Assembly (NCBI RefSeq): GCF_964194155.1
Contig: NC_135895.1
Span: 84,568,001 to 84,632,000 of the forward strand
From: Cetorhinus maximus
Taxonomy: Eukaryota
Direction of reading: 5' to 3'
DNA: 64,000 nt
The first letter of the stretch is position 1, and every line of letters starts with the position of its first letter. A program made the translations under genes and the position numbers. Positions 14,101 through 49,586 of this stretch are shown in pieces. A model generated the notes under the pieces. That model was not told where the DNA came from and did no database searches. It was given only the letters and a program-made list of their open reading frames with translations.

Positions 14101-15078
14101 GCAATGTAGGATATTTCTGCTCTGGCTAGCCTGGAATCTTTCGCATTGGCAGCTATCTTTGGATAGCTATAGAAAAGCTCTTGCAAAATGCAAACCGTAT
14201 ATATCCAGCCTTTGGCATATAATTGATAATTTCCCAATTGTTTTTAAACACAAAATAGAGTTGCTATCCAAAGCATTGTTAGTTCATGTCCAAAGGGCAG
14301 TGTTCAGGGATTATTCCTCAATCAGCTTTGGAAAAAACACTGATATAAAGATGGAACTAATACATGTGATGGCAGATGGCAAGTGGACCTCTATAGTGTG
14401 TGGTAAAGGCAAGTCATGTAAAAAAATGAATACAGTTATCCTCACTTTGGGCTGGTCACGGTAAGATGAAGAACATTGTGTAATCTTCTCCCATGACTCA
14501 CTCATTCCTGGGACCTCAGAACAATGACAGTCTCTATTTTATTTAAGGCTCTTGCCCTGATATGGTCTACAAGCTCTTGGGAAAACTCTTTATCTGGTTT
14601 TCATTCCTCTTTTCATTACAGGTATTGGCTCTGCATCTGGGATCCACAATGGGAAAACAATTCCTTTGTGTGTTTTAAGTTATCAATCTGATAAAGGGCA
14701 GAAATGCCAGAAATGGCACTGAATAGTTTTGAAATGAAGTTGCTGAACCTTGATAAATGCACATGTAGTTTGCCAAGAAATGTAGTTTGGATCAGTCTTT
14801 CTCGGAGCTTTAGGTTGAATAAAGGGTTCAAAGATTCATCAAAAGAAAAGGACAAGCAAAAAAACAAAACAAAAACATATTTTTCTCAAAAGTGTTTAGA
14901 ATTTGACAATACATTATCCTTACTAAGTGAAAGGTTGAATACCGCCATGGTGGAATATTTAATGTTGTTCTGTTAATTTTAAAGAATAGGATTCAATAGG
15001 AAGAATTATGTGGTCCATTGGAATTCTATACAATGAAAGTGAAAGTTTGGTTCATTGCAATCCTACAAAATTAGATTA

Positions 15079-15745
15079 GATAGGAAGAGCTGAAACCCAT
15101 TGGAACTTTAGAGAGGATAGGAAGAACTGTAACCCATTGGAACTTTAGAGAGGATAGGAAGGGCTGTAACCCACTGGGATTTTAGAGAGGATAGGAAGGG
15201 CTGTAACCCACTGGGATTTTAGAGAGGATAGGAAGGGCTGTAACCCACTGGGATTTTAGAGAGGATAGGAAGGGCTGTAACCCACTGGGATTTTAGAGGG
15301 GATAGGAAGGGCTGTAGCCCATTGAGATTTTACAGAGGATAGGAAGGGCTGTAGCCCATTGGGATTTTAGAGGGGATAGGAAGGGCTGTAGCCCATTGGG
15401 ATTTTACAGAGGATAGGAAAGGCTGTAGCCCATTGGGATTTTAGAGGGGATAGGAAGGGCTGTAGCCCATTGGGTTTTTACAGAGGATAGGAAGGGCTGT
15501 AACCCACTGGGATTTTAGAGGGGATAGGAAGGGCTGTAGCCCATTGGGATTTTAGAGAGGATAGGAAGGGCTGTAGCCCATTGGGATTTTAGAGAGGATA
15601 GGAAGGGCTGTAACCCACTGGGATTTTAGAGAGGATAGGAAGGGCTGTAGCCCATTGGGATTTTAGAGAGGATAGGAAGGGCTGTAACCCACTGGGATTT
15701 TAGAAAGGATAGGAAGGGCTGTAGCCCATTGGAATTCTACAGAAG
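15079..15745 (+). repeat. Minisatellite, 37-bp unit, about 18 copies
   Basis: Unit GATAGGAAGGGCTGTA(A/G)CCCA(C/T)TGGGATTTTAGAGAG repeated head to tail; period 37 measured (taggaag at 15081 and 15118). Confidence 0.97.
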
Positions 15746-15749
15746 TACA

Positions 15750-17810
15750 GAAATCACAAAAAGCTAGGGAACATGCAAAAATAAATTAAAATACTGATAG
15801 CCTTCATCTCAAGGAGGCTGGATACAAAGGTGTGGGAGTTATGTTCCAGTTCTACAAACCTCTGGTTAGAGCCCATTTAGAATACTGTGACAGGTCTGGG
15901 CACTGCATCTCAGGAAGAATAGAATCATAAGAATTTATGACCTAGCGGGAGCCCATTCAGCCCATCATGTCTGTGCCGACTGAAAGAGAGCTATCCAGTC
16001 TAACCCTGCTTTCCAACTCTTGGCCCATAGCCCTGCAGGTTGACGCATTTCAAGTGCATATCCTAGTACTTTTTAAAATGCGATGAAGGTTTCTGCCTCG
16101 ACCACTCTTTCAGGGAGTGGGTTCCAGACTTCCACCACTTTCTGGGTAGAAGTATTTCTCCTCAACCCTCTCCCCCTCCAGTTCTTCTGCCAACTACTTC
16201 AAATCCAAGCTGCCTGGTTATTGACCTCACTACTAAGGGAACTAGGTCCTTACTATCCACTCTATGTAGGCCCTCAGAATTTTATGCACCTCAACTTAAT
16301 CTTCCCTAACTCCGACCATCCAATCTTGCCACATAGCTAAAATTCTCCAGTTCTGGCAATATTCTTGTAAATCTGCTCTGTACCCAACCTGATGAGATCA
16401 CATTCTTTCCTATAATATCATACACCGTACGCCAGCTGTGACCTAATGGTTTTGTACAGTTTTTGTTCTTCTGCTTTAGTTGTGTTGGCATCACAGGCTA
16501 ATATCGGCATTCCACCAAGATTTATATGGGTAGCGCTAGCATGACCTACTGAGATGGTAATCTTGATAATGAAAGCCTTTAAATGGAAATAACCTAAAAA
16601 TGGGTCTTGAAGGTTTCTAGTGTTGGGGCTGTGACCATTTCCTTTGGCAGCTTGTTCCATTGTGGGATTGTCCTTGGGAAGAAAGATTGTTAATGCATTG
16701 TCTTGGAAACAAATGGTCTTCGTAGTTCTAGCATAACCGTTCTGCTCTTCGATTCTGTGACAGAGGAACATAGGAGCAGGAGTAGGCCATTCAGCCCCTC
16801 AAGCCTGCTCTCCCATTCAACAAGATCATGGCTGATCATCTACCTCAATGCTACCCCCATATCCCTTGTCATTAGTGTATAGAAATCTATCGGTCTCTGT
16901 CTTGACTGAGCTTCCATAGGCAGCTGGGGTATTGAATTCCAAAGATTCACCACGCTCTGAGTGAAGAAATGCCTCCTCATCTCAGGCCTAAATGGCTTGC
17001 CTCTTATTCTGAGACTGTTCCCTGGTTCTAGAGGCCTATCCCCCCCCCCCCCCCCCCCCCCCCCCGCCCCACCCCTCCACCGGCCAGAGGAAACATCCTT
17101 TCTGCATCTATCCTGACTAGCCCCTTAAGGAATTAGTAAGTCTCAATGAGATCACCTCTCATTCTTCTAAATTCTAGAGAATACAGGCCCAGTATCCTCA
17201 ATCTCTTCTCATAGGAGAGTGCCACCCTCCCAGGAATTAGTCTGATGAACCTCCACTTCACTCCTTCTATGGCAGGTATATGAAGTTAATGAAGGAAAGT
17301 ATTTTTTATATTTTCTTAGCCACCTTATCTACCTGCCTTGCTACATTTAGGGATCTGTGGACATGCACTATAAGCTACCTCTATTCCAATACACTTCTCA
17401 GTATCAACTGATATATTGGCAAATTCACCAGAACAAGACCAAGGCTAATAGGGTTAAATTACAAGCATAATTTGCATAGACTCAACCTGCACTTCTTGAG
17501 TATAGAAGACAAAAGTGTGATGTCATTGAGTTCTTTAAGGTGATTAAAGTGATTGATAGGGGAGTTCGGAACAACTTTAAAACTAGCGCTTGGGCATTCA
17601 GGGTTGATGCCAGGAAGGATACTGGTTATCTGGAAATCTCATCCCAAAAAGCTGCTGAACCTAGGTCTGTGGAAGAATTCAAAATGGGGATTGATATGTT
17701 TTTGTTCAGTAAGGGTATTGGAATCACTGAGACTAAATAGACTTAAGTTACAGATCAACAATGACAGTGGAATAGAATCAAGGACCAAATGGCCTACTCA
17801 TATTTCTATG
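15750..17810. mobile_element. Cluster of CR1 3' fragments in both orientations, with a poly-C run at ~17040-17070
   Basis: CR1 3' motifs (ctggttagagcccatttagaatactgtg; ggagtaggccattcagcccctc; ctctgagtgaagaaat; caaatggcctactc). Confidence 0.75.
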
Positions 17811-34766: not shown

Positions 34767-34929
34767 TGAGGACTGTTGATGTAAATGATTTAACTTCATT
34801 CTTCATATTCAACCTTAATACTAACTATGCAAATCCATTCCGTTAAACTTTTATACTGTAAATCATTGGTTAGGCCTCAGCTGGAATATTGTGTTCATTC
34901 CTGGGCACCACCCTTTCAGAAGGATGTCA

Positions 34930-36905
34930 ATGAAGAGTGCAGGAGGGCACGCCAGGAGCAGCACCAGGCATACCTAAAAATGAGGTGTTAACCTGGTGAA
35001 GCTACAACACAGGACTACTTGTGTGCTAAACAACATAAGCAGCAGTGTTAGACAGCGCTAAGCGACCCCACAACCAACGGATCAGATCTAAGCTCTGCAG
35101 TCCTGCCACATCCAATTGTGAATGGTGGTGGACAATTAAACAACTCACTGGAGGAGGAGGCTACACGAATATCCCCATCCTCAATGATGGGGGAGCCTAG
35201 CACGTTAGTGCAAAAAATAAGGCTGAAGCATTTGCAACAATCTTTAGCCAGAAGTGCCGAGTGGATGATCCATCTCAGCCCCCAGCATCACAGTTGCTTG
35301 TCTTTAGCCAATTTGATTCACTCCATGTGAAAGCAAGAAATGGCTGAAGGCACTGGATAGTGCAAAGGCTATGTGCCCTGCCAATATTCCGGCGATAGTA
35401 CTGATGACTTGTGCTCCAGAACTTGCCGTATCCCTAGCCAAGCTGTTCCAGTACAGCTACAACACCGGCATCTACCTGGCAATGCGGAAAATTGTCAAGA
35501 TATGTTCTGTACTCAGAAAGCAGGACAAATCAACCCTGCCAATTACCGCCCCATGAGTCTATACTTGATCATCAGTAAAGTAATGGAAGGGATCATCAAC
35601 AGTGCTATCAAGCAGCACTTGATCAGCAATAACCTGCTCACTGCTGCTCAGTTTGAGTTCCACCAGGGTCACTCAACTCCTGACCTCATTACAGCCTTGG
35701 TTCAAACATGGATAAATGAGTTGAACTCCCAAAGTGAGGTGAGACTGACTGCCCTTGACATCAAGGCAACATTTGACCGAGTGTGGCATCAAGGAGCACG
35801 AGCAAAATTGAAGTCAATGGCAATCAGGGGGAAAACTCACCACTGGTTGGAGTCATACCTAGCACAAAGGAAGATGATTGTTGTTGTTGGAGGCCAATCA
35901 TCTTAGTTCCAGGACATCACCGCAGGAGTTTCTCAGGGTAGTGCCCTAGGCCCAACCATCTTCAGCTGCTTCATCAACAACCTTTCTTCCATCATAAGAT
36001 CAGTAGTGGGAATGTTCACTGAGGATTGCACAATTTTCAGCACATTTGTGACTCCTCAGATATTGAAGCAGTCCATGTCCAAATGCAGCAAGACCTGGAC
36101 AATATCCAGGCTTGGGCTGACAAGTAACGTTTGTGCCACACAAGTGATAGGCAATGACCATCTCCAGCAACAGAGAATCTATCCATCATCCCATTGACAT
36201 TCAATGGCATTACCATCACTGAATCCCCCACCATCAACCTCCTGGGGGTTATCATTGACCAGGAACTGAACTGGACTAACCATATAAATACTGTGGCTAC
36301 AAGAGCAGGTCAGAGGCTAGGAATCCTACAATGAGTAACTCAACTCCTGACTCCCAAAGCCTGTCCACCATGTACAAGGCACAAGTCAGGAGTGTGATGG
36401 AATACTCTCCACTTGCCTGGATGAATGCAGCTCCCACAACACTCAAGAAGCTTGGCACCATCCAGGACAAAGCAGTCCACTTGATTGGCACCACATCCAC
36501 AAACATTCACTCTTTTCACCACCGATGCACAGTAGCAGCAGTGTGTACCATCTACAAGATGCACTGCGGAATTCAGCCAGGCTCCTTAGACAGCACCTTC
36601 CAAACCCACAACCACTACCATCTAGAAGGACGAGGGCAGCAGATAGAAGGGAACATCACCACCTGCAAGTTCCCCTCGAATCAGTCACCATCCTGACTTG
36701 GAAATATATCACTGTTCCTTCACTGTCGCTGGGTCAAAATCCTAGAATTCTCTCGCTAACAGCACTGTGGGTGTACCTACACCACATGGACTGCAGTGGT
36801 TCAAGAAGGCAGCTCAGCACCACCTTCTCAAGGGCAATTAGGAATGGGCAATAAATTCTGGCTGAGTCAGCAATGCCCACATCCCCTGAAAGAATTTTTA
36901 AAAAG
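34930..36905 (+). mobile_element. 5'-truncated family B LINE (RT region and tail)
   Basis: NPANYRP, ALDIKATFDRVWH, VRSVMEYSPLAW; collinear with 41416-43405. Confidence 0.9.
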
Positions 36906-39224: not shown

Positions 39225-42200
39225 GACGGCGACAAGACTAACACCTGGGGGGAACAGCCGAATGGGCTACCCCAGGGATCTCTCTTCACCCCAACCCTAT
39301 TCAACTTGTACACCAATGACCTACACCAACCCAGTCCTGAAAATTTATCCATGCAGATAACAACTGCTGTGGCATCCAGGCCCAGACATTCTCGGAGCTT
39401 GAAGACGCACTAAATGATGATATTACAAAGCTGGCCGACTACCGCAAGACACGGTCCCTACAACCGAGCACCAGTAAAACAGCCTCTAGCACATTCCACT
39501 TTCACAATGCCAGCATTAAGAGGGGACTGAACAGCACCCTGGATGGCCAGAGACTGAAACACAATCCCCATCCTGTTTATCTAGGTGTCACTCTTGACGA
39601 AGATCCACAAACAGACACCGCCTCATCAAGACTGTTGAAAAAATTTAAACCTAAACAGCGTCCTCAGTAAACTGGCCGGTACCTCATGGGGATCAGAGGC
39701 CAAGACCTTAAGGACCTCTGCTGTTGCCATCACAACAACTGCAGAATACTGTATGGTAGGTATTCCCCCCCACCCCAAACTTATTGGTTTGCAACTCAAC
39801 TCAACAATGCGCATCATCACAGGCATTCTTCGACTCACTCACTTCCTCTAGCTCCCAGTCCTCAGCAACATTGCCCGCCCCCTCACCCCTCCACATCAAG
39901 AGGAAAATTGCAACAGGCAAGCTACTGGAGAAGGTGTACTCCAAATCAAGCATACCCTTATTCAATGAACTTCTCAACTCCCCAGCAGTACGACCTCCCT
40001 CACGCCACCCCATATGGTTAAACCCACCATGCTGAGGAGTAACAGCTGAGAGACCCATGGCAGGAGGATTGGCAGAAAACAGCCACCAGAAACCACTGTC
40101 CCTTTGGACTCCGCTGCTCGCTCACCCAGCTTTGATCTTCCGTGGCTACAGGGGGCCTTTTTAAACTGTTTCCGGACTGGCCAAGGCCTCTGTGCAGCCA
40201 CCCATTATTAATGGGGTCGCCAAGATCATCTGGGCTGCAGCTGTGGCGCAGTCCAAATATGACTCACATTGTTGAGGAGTGTCAGCTGACTAAACTTGAA
40301 GGCGGGCTTAAAGGGGAGGTGGTGGCACAGTGGTATTGTCACTGGACTAGTATTCCAGAGACCCGGGGTAATGCTCTGGGGATCCAGATTCGAATCCCAC
40401 CACAGCATTTGGTGGAATTTGAATCTAATAAAAACCTGGAGTTAAAAGTCTAATGATGATTATCCTAAAAACCCACCTGGTTCACCAATCCCTTCAGGGA
40501 GGGAAATCTGGCTAAGGAATGAAACTAGATGTACACTCAACACCGGAAACGACAATGGCAAACTCAGCCCTGTTGACATGGCAAAGCCCAAAACTGGGAG
40601 AGCTGTCTCACAGACTAGTCAAGCAACACCCTGACATAGTCATCCTCACGAAATCATACCTTACAGATAATGTCCCAGACACCACCATCACCATCCCTGG
40701 GTATGTCCTGTCCCATCTGCAGGACAGACCCAGCAGAGGTGGCGGCACAGTGGTGTACAGATGGGAGGAGTTTGCCCTGGGAGTCCTCAACATCCGCTCT
40801 GGACCCCATGAAGCTTCATTAGATTAGGTCAAACGTGAGAAAGAAAACCTCTTGATTACCACGTACCAGCCTCCCTCAACTGATGAATCAGTGCTCCTCC
40901 ATGTTGAACACCACATGGAGGAAGCACTGAGGGTGGAAAGGGCACAGAATGTACTCTGGGTGGGGGAACTTCAATGTCCATCGCCAAGAGTGGCTTGGTA
41001 GCACCACTACTGACCGAGCTGACCAAGTCCTAATTGACATAGCTGCTAGACTAGGTCTGCATCAGGTGTTGAGGGAATCAACAAGAGCGAAAAACATACT
41101 TGACCGCATCCTCACCAACCTGCCTGCCGCAGATGCATCTGTCCATGACAGAATTGGCAGGAGTGACCACCGCACAGTCCTTGTGGAGACGAAGTCCCGT
41201 CTTTACATTGAGGATATCCTCCATCATGTTGTGTGGCACTACCACCGTGCTGAATGGGTTAGATTTCGAACAGATCTAGCAACTCAAGACTGGGCAATCT
41301 TGAGGCACTGTGGGCCATCATCAGCACCAGAATTGTACTCAGCCACAATCTAAACTCATGGCCTGGCATATCCCCACTCGACCATTACCATCAGGCAAGG
41401 GGATAAACCCTGGCTCAATGAAGAGTGCAGGAGGGCATGCTTGGAGCAGCACCAGGCATACTTAAAAATGAGGTGTCAACCTGGTGAAGCTATAACATAG
41501 GACTACTTGCATGCCAGACAGCATAAGCAGCAAGTGATAGACAGAGCTAAGCGATCCCACAACCAACAGATCAGATCTAAGCTCTGCAGTCCCGCCACAT
41601 CCAGTCATGATTGGTGGTGGGCAATTAAACAACTCATTGGAGGAGATGGTTCCACAAATATCCCCATCCTCAATGATGGGGGAGCCCAGCATGTCAGTGC
41701 AAAAGATAAAGCTGAAGCATTTGCAACAATCTTCAGCCAGAAATGCCGAGTGGATGATCCATCTCAGCTCCTCTGGAGGTCCCCAGCACCACAGATTCCA
41801 GTCTTTAGCCAATTCAATTCACTCCATGTGATATCAAGAAACGGCTGAAGGCACTGGATACTGCAGAGGCTACGGGACCTGACAATATTCCGGCAATAGT
41901 ACTGAAGACTTGTGCTCCAGAACTTGCCGCGCCCCTAGCCAAGCTGTTCCAGCACAACTACAACACTGGCATCTACCTGGCAATGTGGAAAATTACCCAG
42001 GTATGTCCTGTACACAAAAAGCAGGACAAATCTAAACTGGCCAGTTACTGTCCCATCAGTCTACTCTCGATCATCAGTAAAGTAATGGAAGGGGTCATCA
42101 ACAATTGTATCAAGCGCCATTACTTAGCAATAACCTGCTCACTGATGGTCAGTTTGGGTTCCGTCAGGATCACTCAGCTCCTGACCTCATTACAGCCTTG

Positions 42201-43480
42201 GTTCAAACATGGAGGAAGAGCTGAACTCTAGACGTGAGGTGAGAGTGACTGCCCTTGACATCAAGGTAACATTTGACTGAGTGTGGCATCAAGGAGCCCT
42301 AGCAAAACTGGAGTCAATGGGAATCAGGGGGAAATCTCTCTGCTGGTTGGAGTCATATCTAGCACAAAGGAAGATGGTTGTGGTTGTTGGAGGTCAATCA
42401 TGTCAGTCCCAGGACATCATTGCAGGTGTTCCTCAAAGTAGTGTCCTAGGCCCAACCATCATCAGCTGCTTCTTCAATGACCTTCCATCATAAGGCCAGA
42501 AGTGGAGAGGTTCGCTGATGATTACATAATGCTCCGCACCATTTGCAACTCCTCAGATACTGAAGCAGTCCATGTCCAAACGCAACAAGTCCTGGACAAT
42601 ATCCAGCCTTGGGCTGACAAGTGGCAAGTAACATTTGCACCACACAAGTGCCAGGTAATCACCATCTCCAACAAGAGAGAATGTAACAATCATCCCTTGA
42701 CATTCAATGACATTACCATTGCTGAATCAATCCTTCACTATCAACATCTTTGGGGTTACCATTGACCAGAAACTGAACTGGACTAGCCATATAATTGCTA
42801 CAACAGCAGGTCAGAGGCTAGGAATCCTGAGGCGAGTAATTCACCTCTTGACTCCCCAAATTCTGCCCACCATCTACACGGCACAAATCAGGAGTGTGAT
42901 GGAATACTCTCCACTTGCCTGGATGAGTGCAGCTCTAACAACACTCAAGAAGCTTGACATTATCCAGGACAAAGCAGCCCACTTGATTGGCACCCCATCC
43001 ACAAACATTCACTCCCTCCACCACCGATACACAGTGGCAGCAGAGTGTACCACCTACAAGATGCACTGCAGGAACTCACCAAGCCTCCTTAGACAGCATC
43101 TTCCAAACCCATGACCACTACCACCTAGAAGGACAAGGGCAGCAGATGGATGGGAACACCAAAACCTGTTTTTTTTCCCTCCAAGCTCCTCACCATTCCG
43201 ACTTGGAAATATATCACTGTTCCTTCACTGTCACTGGGTCAAAATCCTGGAACTCCCTCCCTAACAGCACTGTGGGTGCACCTACACCACATGGACTGCA
43301 GTGATTCAAGAAGAGAGCTCACCACCACATTCTCAAGGGCAATTAGGGATGGGCAATAAATGCTGGCCCCACCAGCGATATCCACATCTAATGCATAAAT
43401 TTTTATTAAAAGTTCCATCTAGCTGCTGACAAGGCTATTGCCTGGCTCTGAGACAGTGCACACGTTAAATAAATAAATAT
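39225..43480 (+). mobile_element. Vingi/Ingi-like LINE 3' portion, split by the LINE at 40313-43405
   Basis: GLPQGSLFTPTLFNLYTNDL, HPVYLGVTLD, KLAGTSWG...TLRTSA and a C-terminal CSCG...THIVEECQLTKLEGGL motif. The frame resumes after 43410 (...HLAADKAIAWL) and ends in a taaataaataaa tail. Confidence 0.7.
40313..43405 (+). mobile_element. Family B LINE (single APE+RT ORF, no ORF1) with a tRNA-derived 5' head
   Basis: Head has A box TGGCACAGTGG and B box GATTCGAATCC. APE motifs PDIVILT.SYL, G.FNVH, SDH, followed by RT motifs and tail gggcaattagggatgggcaataaatgctggcc. TTAAA flanks both ends. Confidence 0.85.
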
Positions 43481-46407: not shown

Positions 46408-46414
46408 ACTAATT

Positions 46415-46624
46415 TGTCCTGGATGGTGTCAAGCTTCTTGAGTGTTGTTGGGAGCTGTACTCATCCAGGCAAATGGAGAGTATTTCATCACATTCCTGAC
46501 TTGTGCCTTATAGACAGGCTTTAGGGAGTCAGGAGGTGAGTCACTCATCACAGGATTCCTAGCCTCTGACCTGCTCTTGTAGCCACAGTATTTATATGGC
46601 TAGTCTAGTTCAGTTTCCGATCAA
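46415..46624 (-). mobile_element. Family B LINE fragment abutting the truncated Gypsy integrase
   Basis: Matches 3274-3490 (tgtcctggatggtgtcaagcttcttga...). Confidence 0.8.
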
Positions 46625-49586
46625 TAGGTATGGTGCAGTTTTCACATGAGTGATACCGTTGAGGCTGATAAACCATTGAAACTCAGCACTCGCAAATGCT
46701 GTGCTGTTATCGGAAACGACTATTTCTGGTAGTCCGTGAATGGCAAAACTCTGACGTAGTTTCTCAATTGTAGTGGCCGACATTGATGTATTCACTCACA
46801 TACGTCCAACTATTTTGAATGGGCATGGACAATGAGCAGAAACATTGTTCCCAGGAAAGTTCCAACGTAGTCAATGTGTAACCGCATCCAGGGTCTACCT
46901 GGCCACTCCCATGGGTGTAACAGAGCTGTCACTGGCAACTTTTGCAGTTGCTGACATTGCATACAGTGTTTTACTAAACTCTCTATTTCGCCATCCATCC
47001 CAGGCTACCATAGATAGCTGCGTGCTATGGTCTTTATTTGGGAAATTCCTGGATGGACACTGTACAGTTCAACTAAAAGTGGCTCCGTTCCCTTTGGAGG
47101 AACTATCACTCATGCTCCCCAAAATAAGATGCCATTTTGGCTGGTTATTTCATGTCTTCTGATGAAGTACAGTTTCATTTCGTCAGATACGGGCTCCTGT
47201 GACCAACCATGTAACACTTGTTCTCATACCTGAGATAGGACTGGGTCCCAACTTGTCCAGTCTCTGATCTGTCGATGCATACCGACGAGGAACCTAAGAA
47301 ATTTAACAATAAAGCAAGTTCCTGTGGAACTGGGATGTGCTCATCATTTTCTTGTAAAGGCAAATGACTGAGGCCATCAGCTTTTGCGATTTGATTGTCA
47401 GACTTATGTACAAAAGTGTATTCGTACGCTACCAGGACTAAAGCCCTATTAGTATTTCTGTATCTTCGTGCAGACTTTAATCTCGGCCTTCTTTTTGCCT
47501 TCACTATTGGCCAGACTTTTCTCAGATGCAAGTTCAACTTGTTTGAGTTCAGGGGCTGAGTCTCCCAAAATTTCATTATCCGTCTGCTTCTTGGAAAATT
47601 CTGTGACTTTTGCTTCCAAAGCCTCTTTGGCTTCATTTAGCTGATTCTTCAGCTCCTCCATCTCTTTTTTGTATTTGTTTGCTGCCTCCTGGAAAATTGA
47701 ACATTGTTGTGTCTTCTCTGCCAACTCATTCTTCAATTTGTTTAGAGAAGTGGCGAATTCTGTCTGTTTCTCTTCATACTTTTCCAGAGGTACCAACTCT
47801 GACTTGAGGGCATCTTATAGTGTGTGAAGGTCTTTCCACAAGTTTTCTTTTTCCCTTCGAAGATTGCCCACCTCATCTCGAACTTCATCATCAAGCAGGG
47901 TCTCTTTGAGTTCCTTCTAAGACAGCCTGCATTTCTTCAGGCTGTTGAGTCCTTACACACTCCTTTTTCAAAACAGGAACGCTTCCAGCTTCCTTTTGGA
48001 ATCCTAGTGGCCAATCAAGGTTGATTTCCCTTAGCCAATTTCACCCTAGAAGGCTTGGTCCTCTGCTTCTCAATACTAACACTGGTAGCTCTGGCGATTG
48101 GCTTCCATAATGGACAGTTACTCTGCTTATGCCTTCTGCTTGAATGTCTTCACCCGAATATGTTTTTAGCTTAGCATCTGTTTCTTCTAAACTTAATTGA
48201 TGTTCACCACTATTCAAGTATCTGAAGGTATGTTCCCCAATTACTGTAATGGGAGCTCCCGTGTCCATTTCCATTTTAACAGGCTTGCCATTTACTTTCA
48301 CTGTGACAAATATTGATTCTGTCTTTCCAACTTTCAGATTAAACAATGAGTAAATGTCTGAATTTGTTTTTTCAGGCTCTTCTACATTGTAGATTTCATT
48401 GGGATTTTTCTTTTCTTTACAAGCCTGCTTGAATCTTTCCTTGCATTGCCTCGTCGTATGTCCGTTTCTCTGACAATAGTAGCATTCGATTTTTTAAAAC
48501 TGCCAATCACTAAAAGACTGATTGTTTCTACCTCTATTAAAATTATTCTTCAATTTTGCTGCTAAGTTATTTTTCATTATTCTTCGGCTAGCAGGGACTG
48601 TTTCCCACTTCTTGGCAGAGTTTTGCTTTTTCGCGCCTCTTTCGGTTGAGGTTTCCCACCCAATGTGGAGGATGGGGCCATTTTGCACACCCTGTATTGC
48701 TTTTGAATGTCTTACTGCACTCTCCATGGCCAGCGCTATCTCTAGTGCCTTCTTGAAATCCAGATTCAATTCGGACAATAATCTTTTCTGAATAGTGTTC
48801 TCTTTCACACGACACACTAAATGATCTCTGAGCATGTTGTTCAGGGTCATACCAAACTCACAATGTTCTGTTAGCTGCTTCGAATTTTCCACATAGCATG
48901 CAATTGTCTCACCTGGGGCTTTGTTTCACGAATTAAACTTGAGCCTCTGCATTGTGACTGAGGGCTTTGGTTGAAAATGACCCTTCACAAGGTCCAACAA
49001 TTCATCAAAATTCTTCGAATCTGGGGCACTTGGTGCCATTAAACTTCGAATAAGACTGGAGGTTTTGCTCCCACAAGTACTCAAGAGGATTGCTCGCCTC
49101 TTCTCTTCCCCCCTAATCTCATTCGCTTGAAAAAAGGTTAGACGTTGTATATATTGAGACCAATCATCTGTGGCAGGTTCAAAAGGATCAATTGTCCGAA
49201 ATTGTGGCATCTTGAGAGGGGATAATCAATTCTAATGGAGCTTTCTAATTACAATCACTGGGCAAGGACAGTGCCAATTTCTTTCTTACTTGATTTCTTC
49301 TGTTCAATCCTCTTTTATCCTCACCGGCAGTTTGTGGTAGGGTGCCCGAGTTATACTATTAGTGAAAGAGTTGAAATGCAGACACTTCTTGGGTGGAAAC
49401 ATTAAGTTTATTTACAATATACTCAGCAGCAACTACACGTGTGCTTTCAACTCCAACTCTTTCTCTACACTGACTGCTAAGGTAGCCTGCACTACTCTCC
49501 TTATGGTTACTACAGATCATATGATCTTGCCCAACAAATATTATTCTTAAAGGTATTACACACTAAATAAAACCATAATTGCTACA
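46625..49586 (-). mobile_element. Decayed Gypsy/Ty3 LTR retrotransposon: 5' LTR 49333-49586, gag, protease, end of RNase H, integrase; RT absent
   Basis: TG...CA LTR and a degenerate PBS (aactgccggtgaggat). gag: FEPATDDWSQY, CEFG...LRDHLV. Protease MEMDTGA. RNase H end AYEYTF...ADGLSHLP. Integrase HPWEWPGRPW.RLHIDY and GLPEIVVSDN. Confidence 0.9.
47455..48005 (-). pseudogene. Captured host-like coiled-coil coding fragment (UACA/RAI14/ANKRD24-family-like) inside the Gypsy element
   Basis: Reads DEVGNLRREKENLWKDLHTL*DALKSELVPLEKYEEKQTEFATSLNKLKNELAEKTQQCSIFQEAANKYKKEMEELKNQL. E/K-rich heptads with no retroelement motifs; the family call is from recall only. Confidence 0.5.

Follow-up and report, generated by a model that had tools for sequence, protein, structure and literature searches.

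LTR-mediated retroposition, described in zebrafish, chicken and mammals, places a partial mRNA without poly-A within a discontinuous LTR element and can give rise to multi-gene chimeras and to secondary retroposition, as set out by Tan et al. 2016 (PMC5131818). The mouse 'Super' retrocopy described there is a four-gene chimera (Tan et al. 2016, PMC5131818). Crocodilian ERVs are described as having captured KIT-ligand and nectin3 mRNA, with nectin3 replacing env, signs of purifying selection and 6-9 copies (PMC4299795). Bdelloid rotifer retroelements exchange extra ORFs across diverse types, ORFs which that account presents as not recaptured from the host (PMC5408684), and host gene pieces fixed in the consensus proteins of transposable elements have been tested for selection (Abrusan et al. 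2013, PMC3597677). The locus described here lies in a 64-kb stretch of basking shark DNA (64,000 nucleotides, hereafter the window). It is a decayed copy of a high-copy Gypsy family that lacks RT and carries an in-frame coiled coil of UACA, in our judgement likely acquired through mRNA capture by an older lineage and subsequent relay between families.

Results

The Gypsy element in the window

The minus strand of the window (49586-46627) carries a decayed Gypsy element of the LTR retrotransposon type, which presumably resembles Mag elements. It comprises, in order, a 5' LTR, gag with a zinc knuckle, an aspartyl protease (PR), an E/K-rich coiled coil, an RNase H tail and integrase (IN) (Table 1). 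The sequence-only reading had described the pol part of this arrangement, including the missing RT, and it was borne out by ORF and Pfam analysis. While the parent family P, introduced below, displays the pol order PR-RT-RNase H, the window copy passes from PR to the RNase H tail and IN, RT being absent from its sequence and ORFs. Both integrase domains, rve and Integrase_H2C2, were matched below the Pfam cut-off. No 3' LTR of this copy was found within the 64-kb window, and its decay is apparent from stops and a private 23-bp deletion. Comparison of five copies revealed conserved motifs at the primer-binding-site and polypurine-tract positions. The previously noted lack of poly-A at the end of the insert was confirmed, none being found there in the window copy. 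Elsewhere, the window contains a tandem array with a 37-bp period (14968-15859) and two same-strand LINE copies, ~6.5 kb apart and 86-92% identical (34927-36900 and 41415-43405).

Table 1. Features of the Gypsy element and its immediate surroundings, in window coordinates.
Feature	Position	Strand	Basis or remark
5' LTR, ~255 bp, starts TG	49333..49586	-	matches both LTRs of full copies
Primer-binding-site position, degenerate	49315..49332	-	sequence beyond the LTR examined across five copies
gag, interrupted by stops, with CCHC zinc knuckle	48308..49210	-	zf-CCHC E=0.004, below cut-off
Aspartyl protease	48011..48307	-	Pfam PF13650 and PF13975 over cut-off, including Asp_protease_2
Gypsy protease-RT linker, diverged, non-host	47971..48010	-	by-eye alignment with linker of RT-bearing copies
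UACA piece 1, ~residues 900-1020 of shark UACA	47645..47970	-	in frame with Gag-PR in less decayed copies
UACA piece 2, ~residues 1160-1200	47543..47653	-	joined by in-frame 450-bp deletion at 9-bp repeat GCTGAAGAA
Non-UACA tail (94 bp), ends in stop codon	47449..47542	-	first part common to lineages U and C
RNase H tail and integrase, downstream of stop	46627..47446	-	from RT-bearing parent, form B junction
LINE fragment, presumably CR1/L2-like	46413..46630	-	element cut off at 46627 here

UACA as the donor of the insert

A sister copy of the element matched the UACA proteins of four cartilaginous fishes (E 1e-30 to 1e-16), and the window insert itself is 74% identical over 221 nt (E 3e-35) to the UACA exon of its own genome, so that UACA, the donor proposed earlier by eye, is upheld. 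The large UACA exon (G000:C27; open frame, 911 aa) aligns with ~47970-47543 of the window in two pieces at 70-74% identity. The sequence-only reading had placed the insert at 47455..48005; the UACA coiled coil does lie within these bounds, although the host DNA starts at ~47970 and ends at ~47543, the 40 bp before it representing Gypsy linker and the 94 bp after it the non-UACA tail. This tail (47542-47449) matched neither ninein nor UACA. Other searches were less informative: among the 673 candidates obtained with the window ORF as sole query there was no homologue, searches of Pfam, ESM Atlas and PDB returned generic coiled-coil matches only, and none of the 150 matches listed in the own-genome protein search with the window ORF has the long frame of the donor. 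All captured UACA sequence falls inside one 2.7-kb exon and, because of this, intron loss can be read from the TPR cargo described below and not from UACA.

A high-copy, non-autonomous family with shared junctions

The Gypsy family of the window copy, which lacks RT and occurs in two forms, A and B, is termed here the window family. Searching the own genome at the DNA level yielded 3589 first-look candidates; each of the 40 that were scored matched (39 besides the window, 82-88%), while the protein search gave 9745 candidates, with matches for 150 of the 150 scored; 3589 and 9745 are numbers of search candidates, not of copies. The junction between protease and insert (5' junction) was present in 37/37 distinct loci examined, located on many contigs; these loci were picked by insert similarity and partly for open frames, with self, one duplicate and 12 re-fetches excluded. 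At the 3' junction, 30 of the 37 loci display form B, the window type, in which the insert joins the RNase H tail after the stop, and six display form A, in which it joins the RT tail out of frame; one locus was left unclassified. Form B measures ~4.0 kb. LTR pairs, 82-93% identical, were observed in 17/20 larger loci, and the LTRs of the family have TG...CA ends. Target duplications of 5 bp, exact in two copies and with one mismatch in five, were observed in 7/13 full copies, several of the remaining six having imprecise ends. The common junction at 37 loci, combined with own target duplications, reveals secondary retroposition of the chimera. In the less decayed copies L033, L036 and L044, Gag, PR and insert constitute a single open frame of 382-522 aa. 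The window family is thus a high-copy, non-autonomous Gypsy family with a UACA coiled coil fused in frame to Gag-protease, and the suggestion that copies with shared junctions would define a non-autonomous LTR family proved correct. At L041:1073-2344 we observed a 424-aa open frame, which may be a Harbinger-type transposase.

Multi-gene cargo and mRNA capture in lineage U

A distinct LTR lineage, termed U (L083-L100, e.g. L093:2956-7314 and L095:1960-8640), carries pieces of UACA, ninein and TPR in their own reading frames. Its LTRs differ from those of the window family and none of its 18 loci matched the gag, PR, RT, RNase H or IN probes of that family; a short gag-like start was recognised by visual inspection alone. 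Further segments lie between this gag-like start and UACA. The cargo comprises up to 1.2-1.5 kb of the UACA exon, followed by ninein and then TPR, and UACA-tail-ninein-TPR reads through in natural U copies. Identity of U copies to the donor exon is 77-93%, depending on the segment. The ninein piece (E 5e-21; own exon at G000:C19) was matched in 16/18 loci, and the TPR piece scored over the cut-off for Pfam PF25481 in three of the seven ORFs scanned; searches with the TPR piece gave ~3500 candidates. The TPR piece consists of eight to nine host segments, most of them with AG/GT borders, which are spread over 16 kb of G000:C18 and are joined in U without introns. This spliced, intron-free structure demonstrates mRNA capture in lineage U, and RNA-mediated capture is therefore established for its TPR cargo.

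Family C and the probable relay of the cargo

Another Gypsy family, C, is ~75% identical to the window family. It contains gag-PR followed by the trimmed UACA piece and the tail found in that family, has a second cargo as well and retains only the C-terminus of integrase, the cargo thus replacing RT, RNase H and the integrase core. The second cargo, ~250 bp in length, follows the stop and is in frame with the integrase tail (L057:1536-1781, L122:3871-5019). It matches a host-exon-like, Q-rich open frame of 383 aa at G000:C7 and received no name from Pfam or Atlas; a further 28 copies, 81-93% identical, exist of the neighbouring part of that frame, suggesting another capture family. In L050 a window-family copy is inserted within a family C copy, which fits C being the older of the two. 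RVT_1 scored over the Pfam cut-off in L115. At L115:5235-6064 and in L117, C-type copies were observed with RT joined to the UACA piece, representing further recombinants of RT-bearing and cargo-bearing elements.

The UACA exit point and a homologous tail are shared by six U, four C and six window-family copies. In a tree built from 73 rows and 343 columns, donor plus U, family C and the window family were separated (both branches 100/100), the window family lying furthest from the donor. Mean identity to the donor is 82% for U, 74% for C and 70% for the window family, and identity within each family is 83%, 86.5% and 90%, respectively. The tree is midpoint-rooted, and its direction rests on the donor as source and on within-family ages. 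The net dS that separates C from the window family amounts to 0.92 in gag-PR and 0.32 in the insert, and the cargo is therefore younger than the split of the backbones. Because of the tree and the shared breakpoint, the order host, U, C, window family is preferred; the simplest reading is that the cargo passed from host to a U-like element, then to C and finally to the window family, having moved to new backbones at least twice. Candidate microhomology at the switch points includes the 9-bp repeat at the internal deletion, with none clear at the first Gypsy/UACA junction in C.

The sequence-only reading had instead proposed a single template switch from UACA mRNA directly into the window element, a proposal that conflicts with the shared 3' break and tail, the tree and the C-derived tract that includes the linker. 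It had also allowed for a later single insertion with its own target duplication, against which stand the lack of poly-A and the junction common to 37/37 loci, and for misassembly, contradicted by the same 37 loci. Nor does the insert fit a LINE-made processed pseudogene, of which a single locus, poly-A and its own target duplication would be expected. An independent UACA capture by the window family, a later insertion or an assembly error would, even taken together, be highly improbable, given that the breakpoint and tail are shared with U and C and that family sequence including the 5' junction occurs in public runs of three organism labels.

The RT-bearing partner family P

When RT tail and RNase H from a form A copy served as the query, 29 other loci were retrieved, of which 25 have RT upstream and four have the insert. 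Loci of this RT-bearing family, termed P, that contain both RT and PR (n=20) are 80-89% identical to the window protease. By eye, the sequence of the window family is P-like up to about 48085 in the protease, C-like from there on, and P-like again after junction A or B. As further candidate microhomology, junction A displays an A-rich overlap and junction B an imperfect similarity. The window family thus comprises the gag-PR, RNase H and integrase of the separate family P, into which a C-type tract has been swapped in one of two forms, A and B. Its copies may be mobilised in trans by P.

The proposed mechanism is as follows. An older LTR lineage likely took up the UACA piece from mRNA, after which recombination, probably template switching in shared particles, passed it from family to family. 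Lineage U, carrying UACA, ninein and spliced TPR pieces, stands for the first step. A trimmed part of its cargo came to occupy the place of RT, RNase H and the integrase core in family C, as the tree and shared breakpoint show, and the P backbone took up the C-type tract, yielding forms A and B of the window family. Copies would be moved by the RT and integrase of P, presumably while making their own Gag-PR-coiled-coil protein. Finally, selection may have preserved the open frame and a moderate conservation of piece 1, the most likely reason being that a translatable, soluble Gag-PR is needed to package the element's own RNA, with the coiled coil as a tolerated tail. The relay of UACA indicates that fragments of host genes can travel, as cargo, from one retrotransposon family to another.

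Selection on the cargo

Constraint was assessed by a codon-position test against a within-family baseline, piece 1 comprising 102 codons; a Nei-Gojobori omega compared with 1 was dropped as a test, since omega within families is already ~0.5. For piece 1, U and the window family gave a ratio of 0.49 against a neutral 0.94 (P=0.003, a moderate third-position bias), and the third-position test gave P=0.03 for U versus C and P=0.07 for C versus the window family. Piece 2 with the tail displays no third-position bias (1.08 vs 0.97), and the bias of gag-PR is far stronger (0.22). Large shared deletions are in frame, namely 126 and 282 bp in U, 450 bp in the UACA join and, by eye, 54 bp. An in-frame deletion of 147 bp, computed by hand for three U copies, did not reappear among the shared deletions and was left uncounted.

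These data bear on three explanations. That the cargo is entirely neutral filler, with frame keeping and codon bias reflecting chance or mutational bias, would agree with the neutrality of piece 2 and tail, with the non-significant comparison of C and the window family and with four 1-2 bp indels, common to 3-4 U copies, that break the frame. The two significant comparisons involving U speak against it, however, and only 9 of 36 private indels of at least 4 bp are multiples of three whereas both large shared ones are, which makes fully neutral filler quite unlikely. A useful coiled coil, spread by the same relay and serving to oligomerise Gag or to steer particles to the centrosome, nuclear envelope or pore, would fit the third-position bias of piece 1, the frame kept by large shared deletions and cargo fusions, the repeated moves to new backbones and the fact that UACA, ninein and TPR are all long coiled-coil proteins. 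Nevertheless, the cargo becomes shorter in the course of the relay, its amino-acid identity falling to ~50%, piece 2 is unconstrained, and the microsimilarity to A-rich Gypsy RNA may simply be greater for coiled-coil coding DNA because it is purine-rich; we consider this explanation improbable, and a positive role for the coiled coil unlikely. It is likewise doubtful that shark Gypsy elements maintain a common pool of coiled-coil modules of host origin (UACA, ninein and TPR, perhaps others), attached to Gag and exchanged among lineages for particle assembly or steering to centrosome or nuclear pore, which would make them a host-derived parasitism module for non-autonomous LTR elements. Instead, we infer a pressure to keep a translatable Gag-PR to which the coiled coil is attached as a tolerated tail.

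Public sequence data and annotation

In five public runs guessed to be RNA, copies of the family are represented by contigs, some of which extend across the PR-UACA junction; these contigs are unstranded, and the runs may contain DNA, so that the contigs need not stem from transcripts. The window family is present in public runs of three organism labels. Two of these have a contig that is ~97% identical to the unique 5' flank and reaches 27-28 bases into the LTR, short of the 31 bases of the bridging rule, which is only a hint that the insertion at 49586 may be shared across organisms. Two basking shark database proteins labelled 'uncharacterized', P0006 and P0007, represent copies of cargo-bearing elements (P0006 at 73% and P0007 at 53% to the insert), and such copies thus mislead gene annotation. 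P0007 displays a 450-bp-type deletion together with a U-like tail and may be an intermediate.

Comparison with known systems

Capture of host sequence by LTR elements is known. The literature searched yielded no precedent for its scale here, for a relay that spans three lineages or for coiled-coil cargo taken up repeatedly, nor any report of UACA, ninein or TPR capture in sharks, although supplements, Repbase or Dfam may list these families. In this vertebrate case, captured mRNA pieces became the core of several very large LTR families, not single retrocopies. Donors, intermediates and the RT-bearing partner all reside in one genome, so that transfer order, trimming, frame keeping and selection can be measured. 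Thousands of UACA-, ninein- and TPR-like copies could also yield small RNAs against essential host genes.

Host gene pieces within the proteins of transposable elements are common to the shark families and to Abrusan et al. 2013, although the word 'coiled' does not occur in the main text of that study (PMC3597677). Exchange of cargo between retroelements is a property common to the shark and bdelloid elements, although the bdelloid extra ORFs, as described, are enzymatic, occupy the ORF3 position and have remote origins, whereas the shark donors are identified exons of the same genome (PMC5408684). Similarly, in both crocodilians and sharks host mRNA in a vertebrate LTR element replaces an element gene; the crocodilian ERVs are presented as Retroviridae with near-complete proteins in separate ORFs, in contrast with the shark Gypsy elements, where internal coiled-coil fragments are fused to Gag-PR in place of RT (PMC4299795). 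Partial host mRNA within discontinuous LTR-element sequence characterises both the window family and the retrocopies of Tan et al. 2016 (PMC5131818). Those retrocopies, as reported, are young and occupy one or few sites, while the shark chimeras form families with thousands of search candidates and a cargo distributed across three LTR lineages (PMC5131818).
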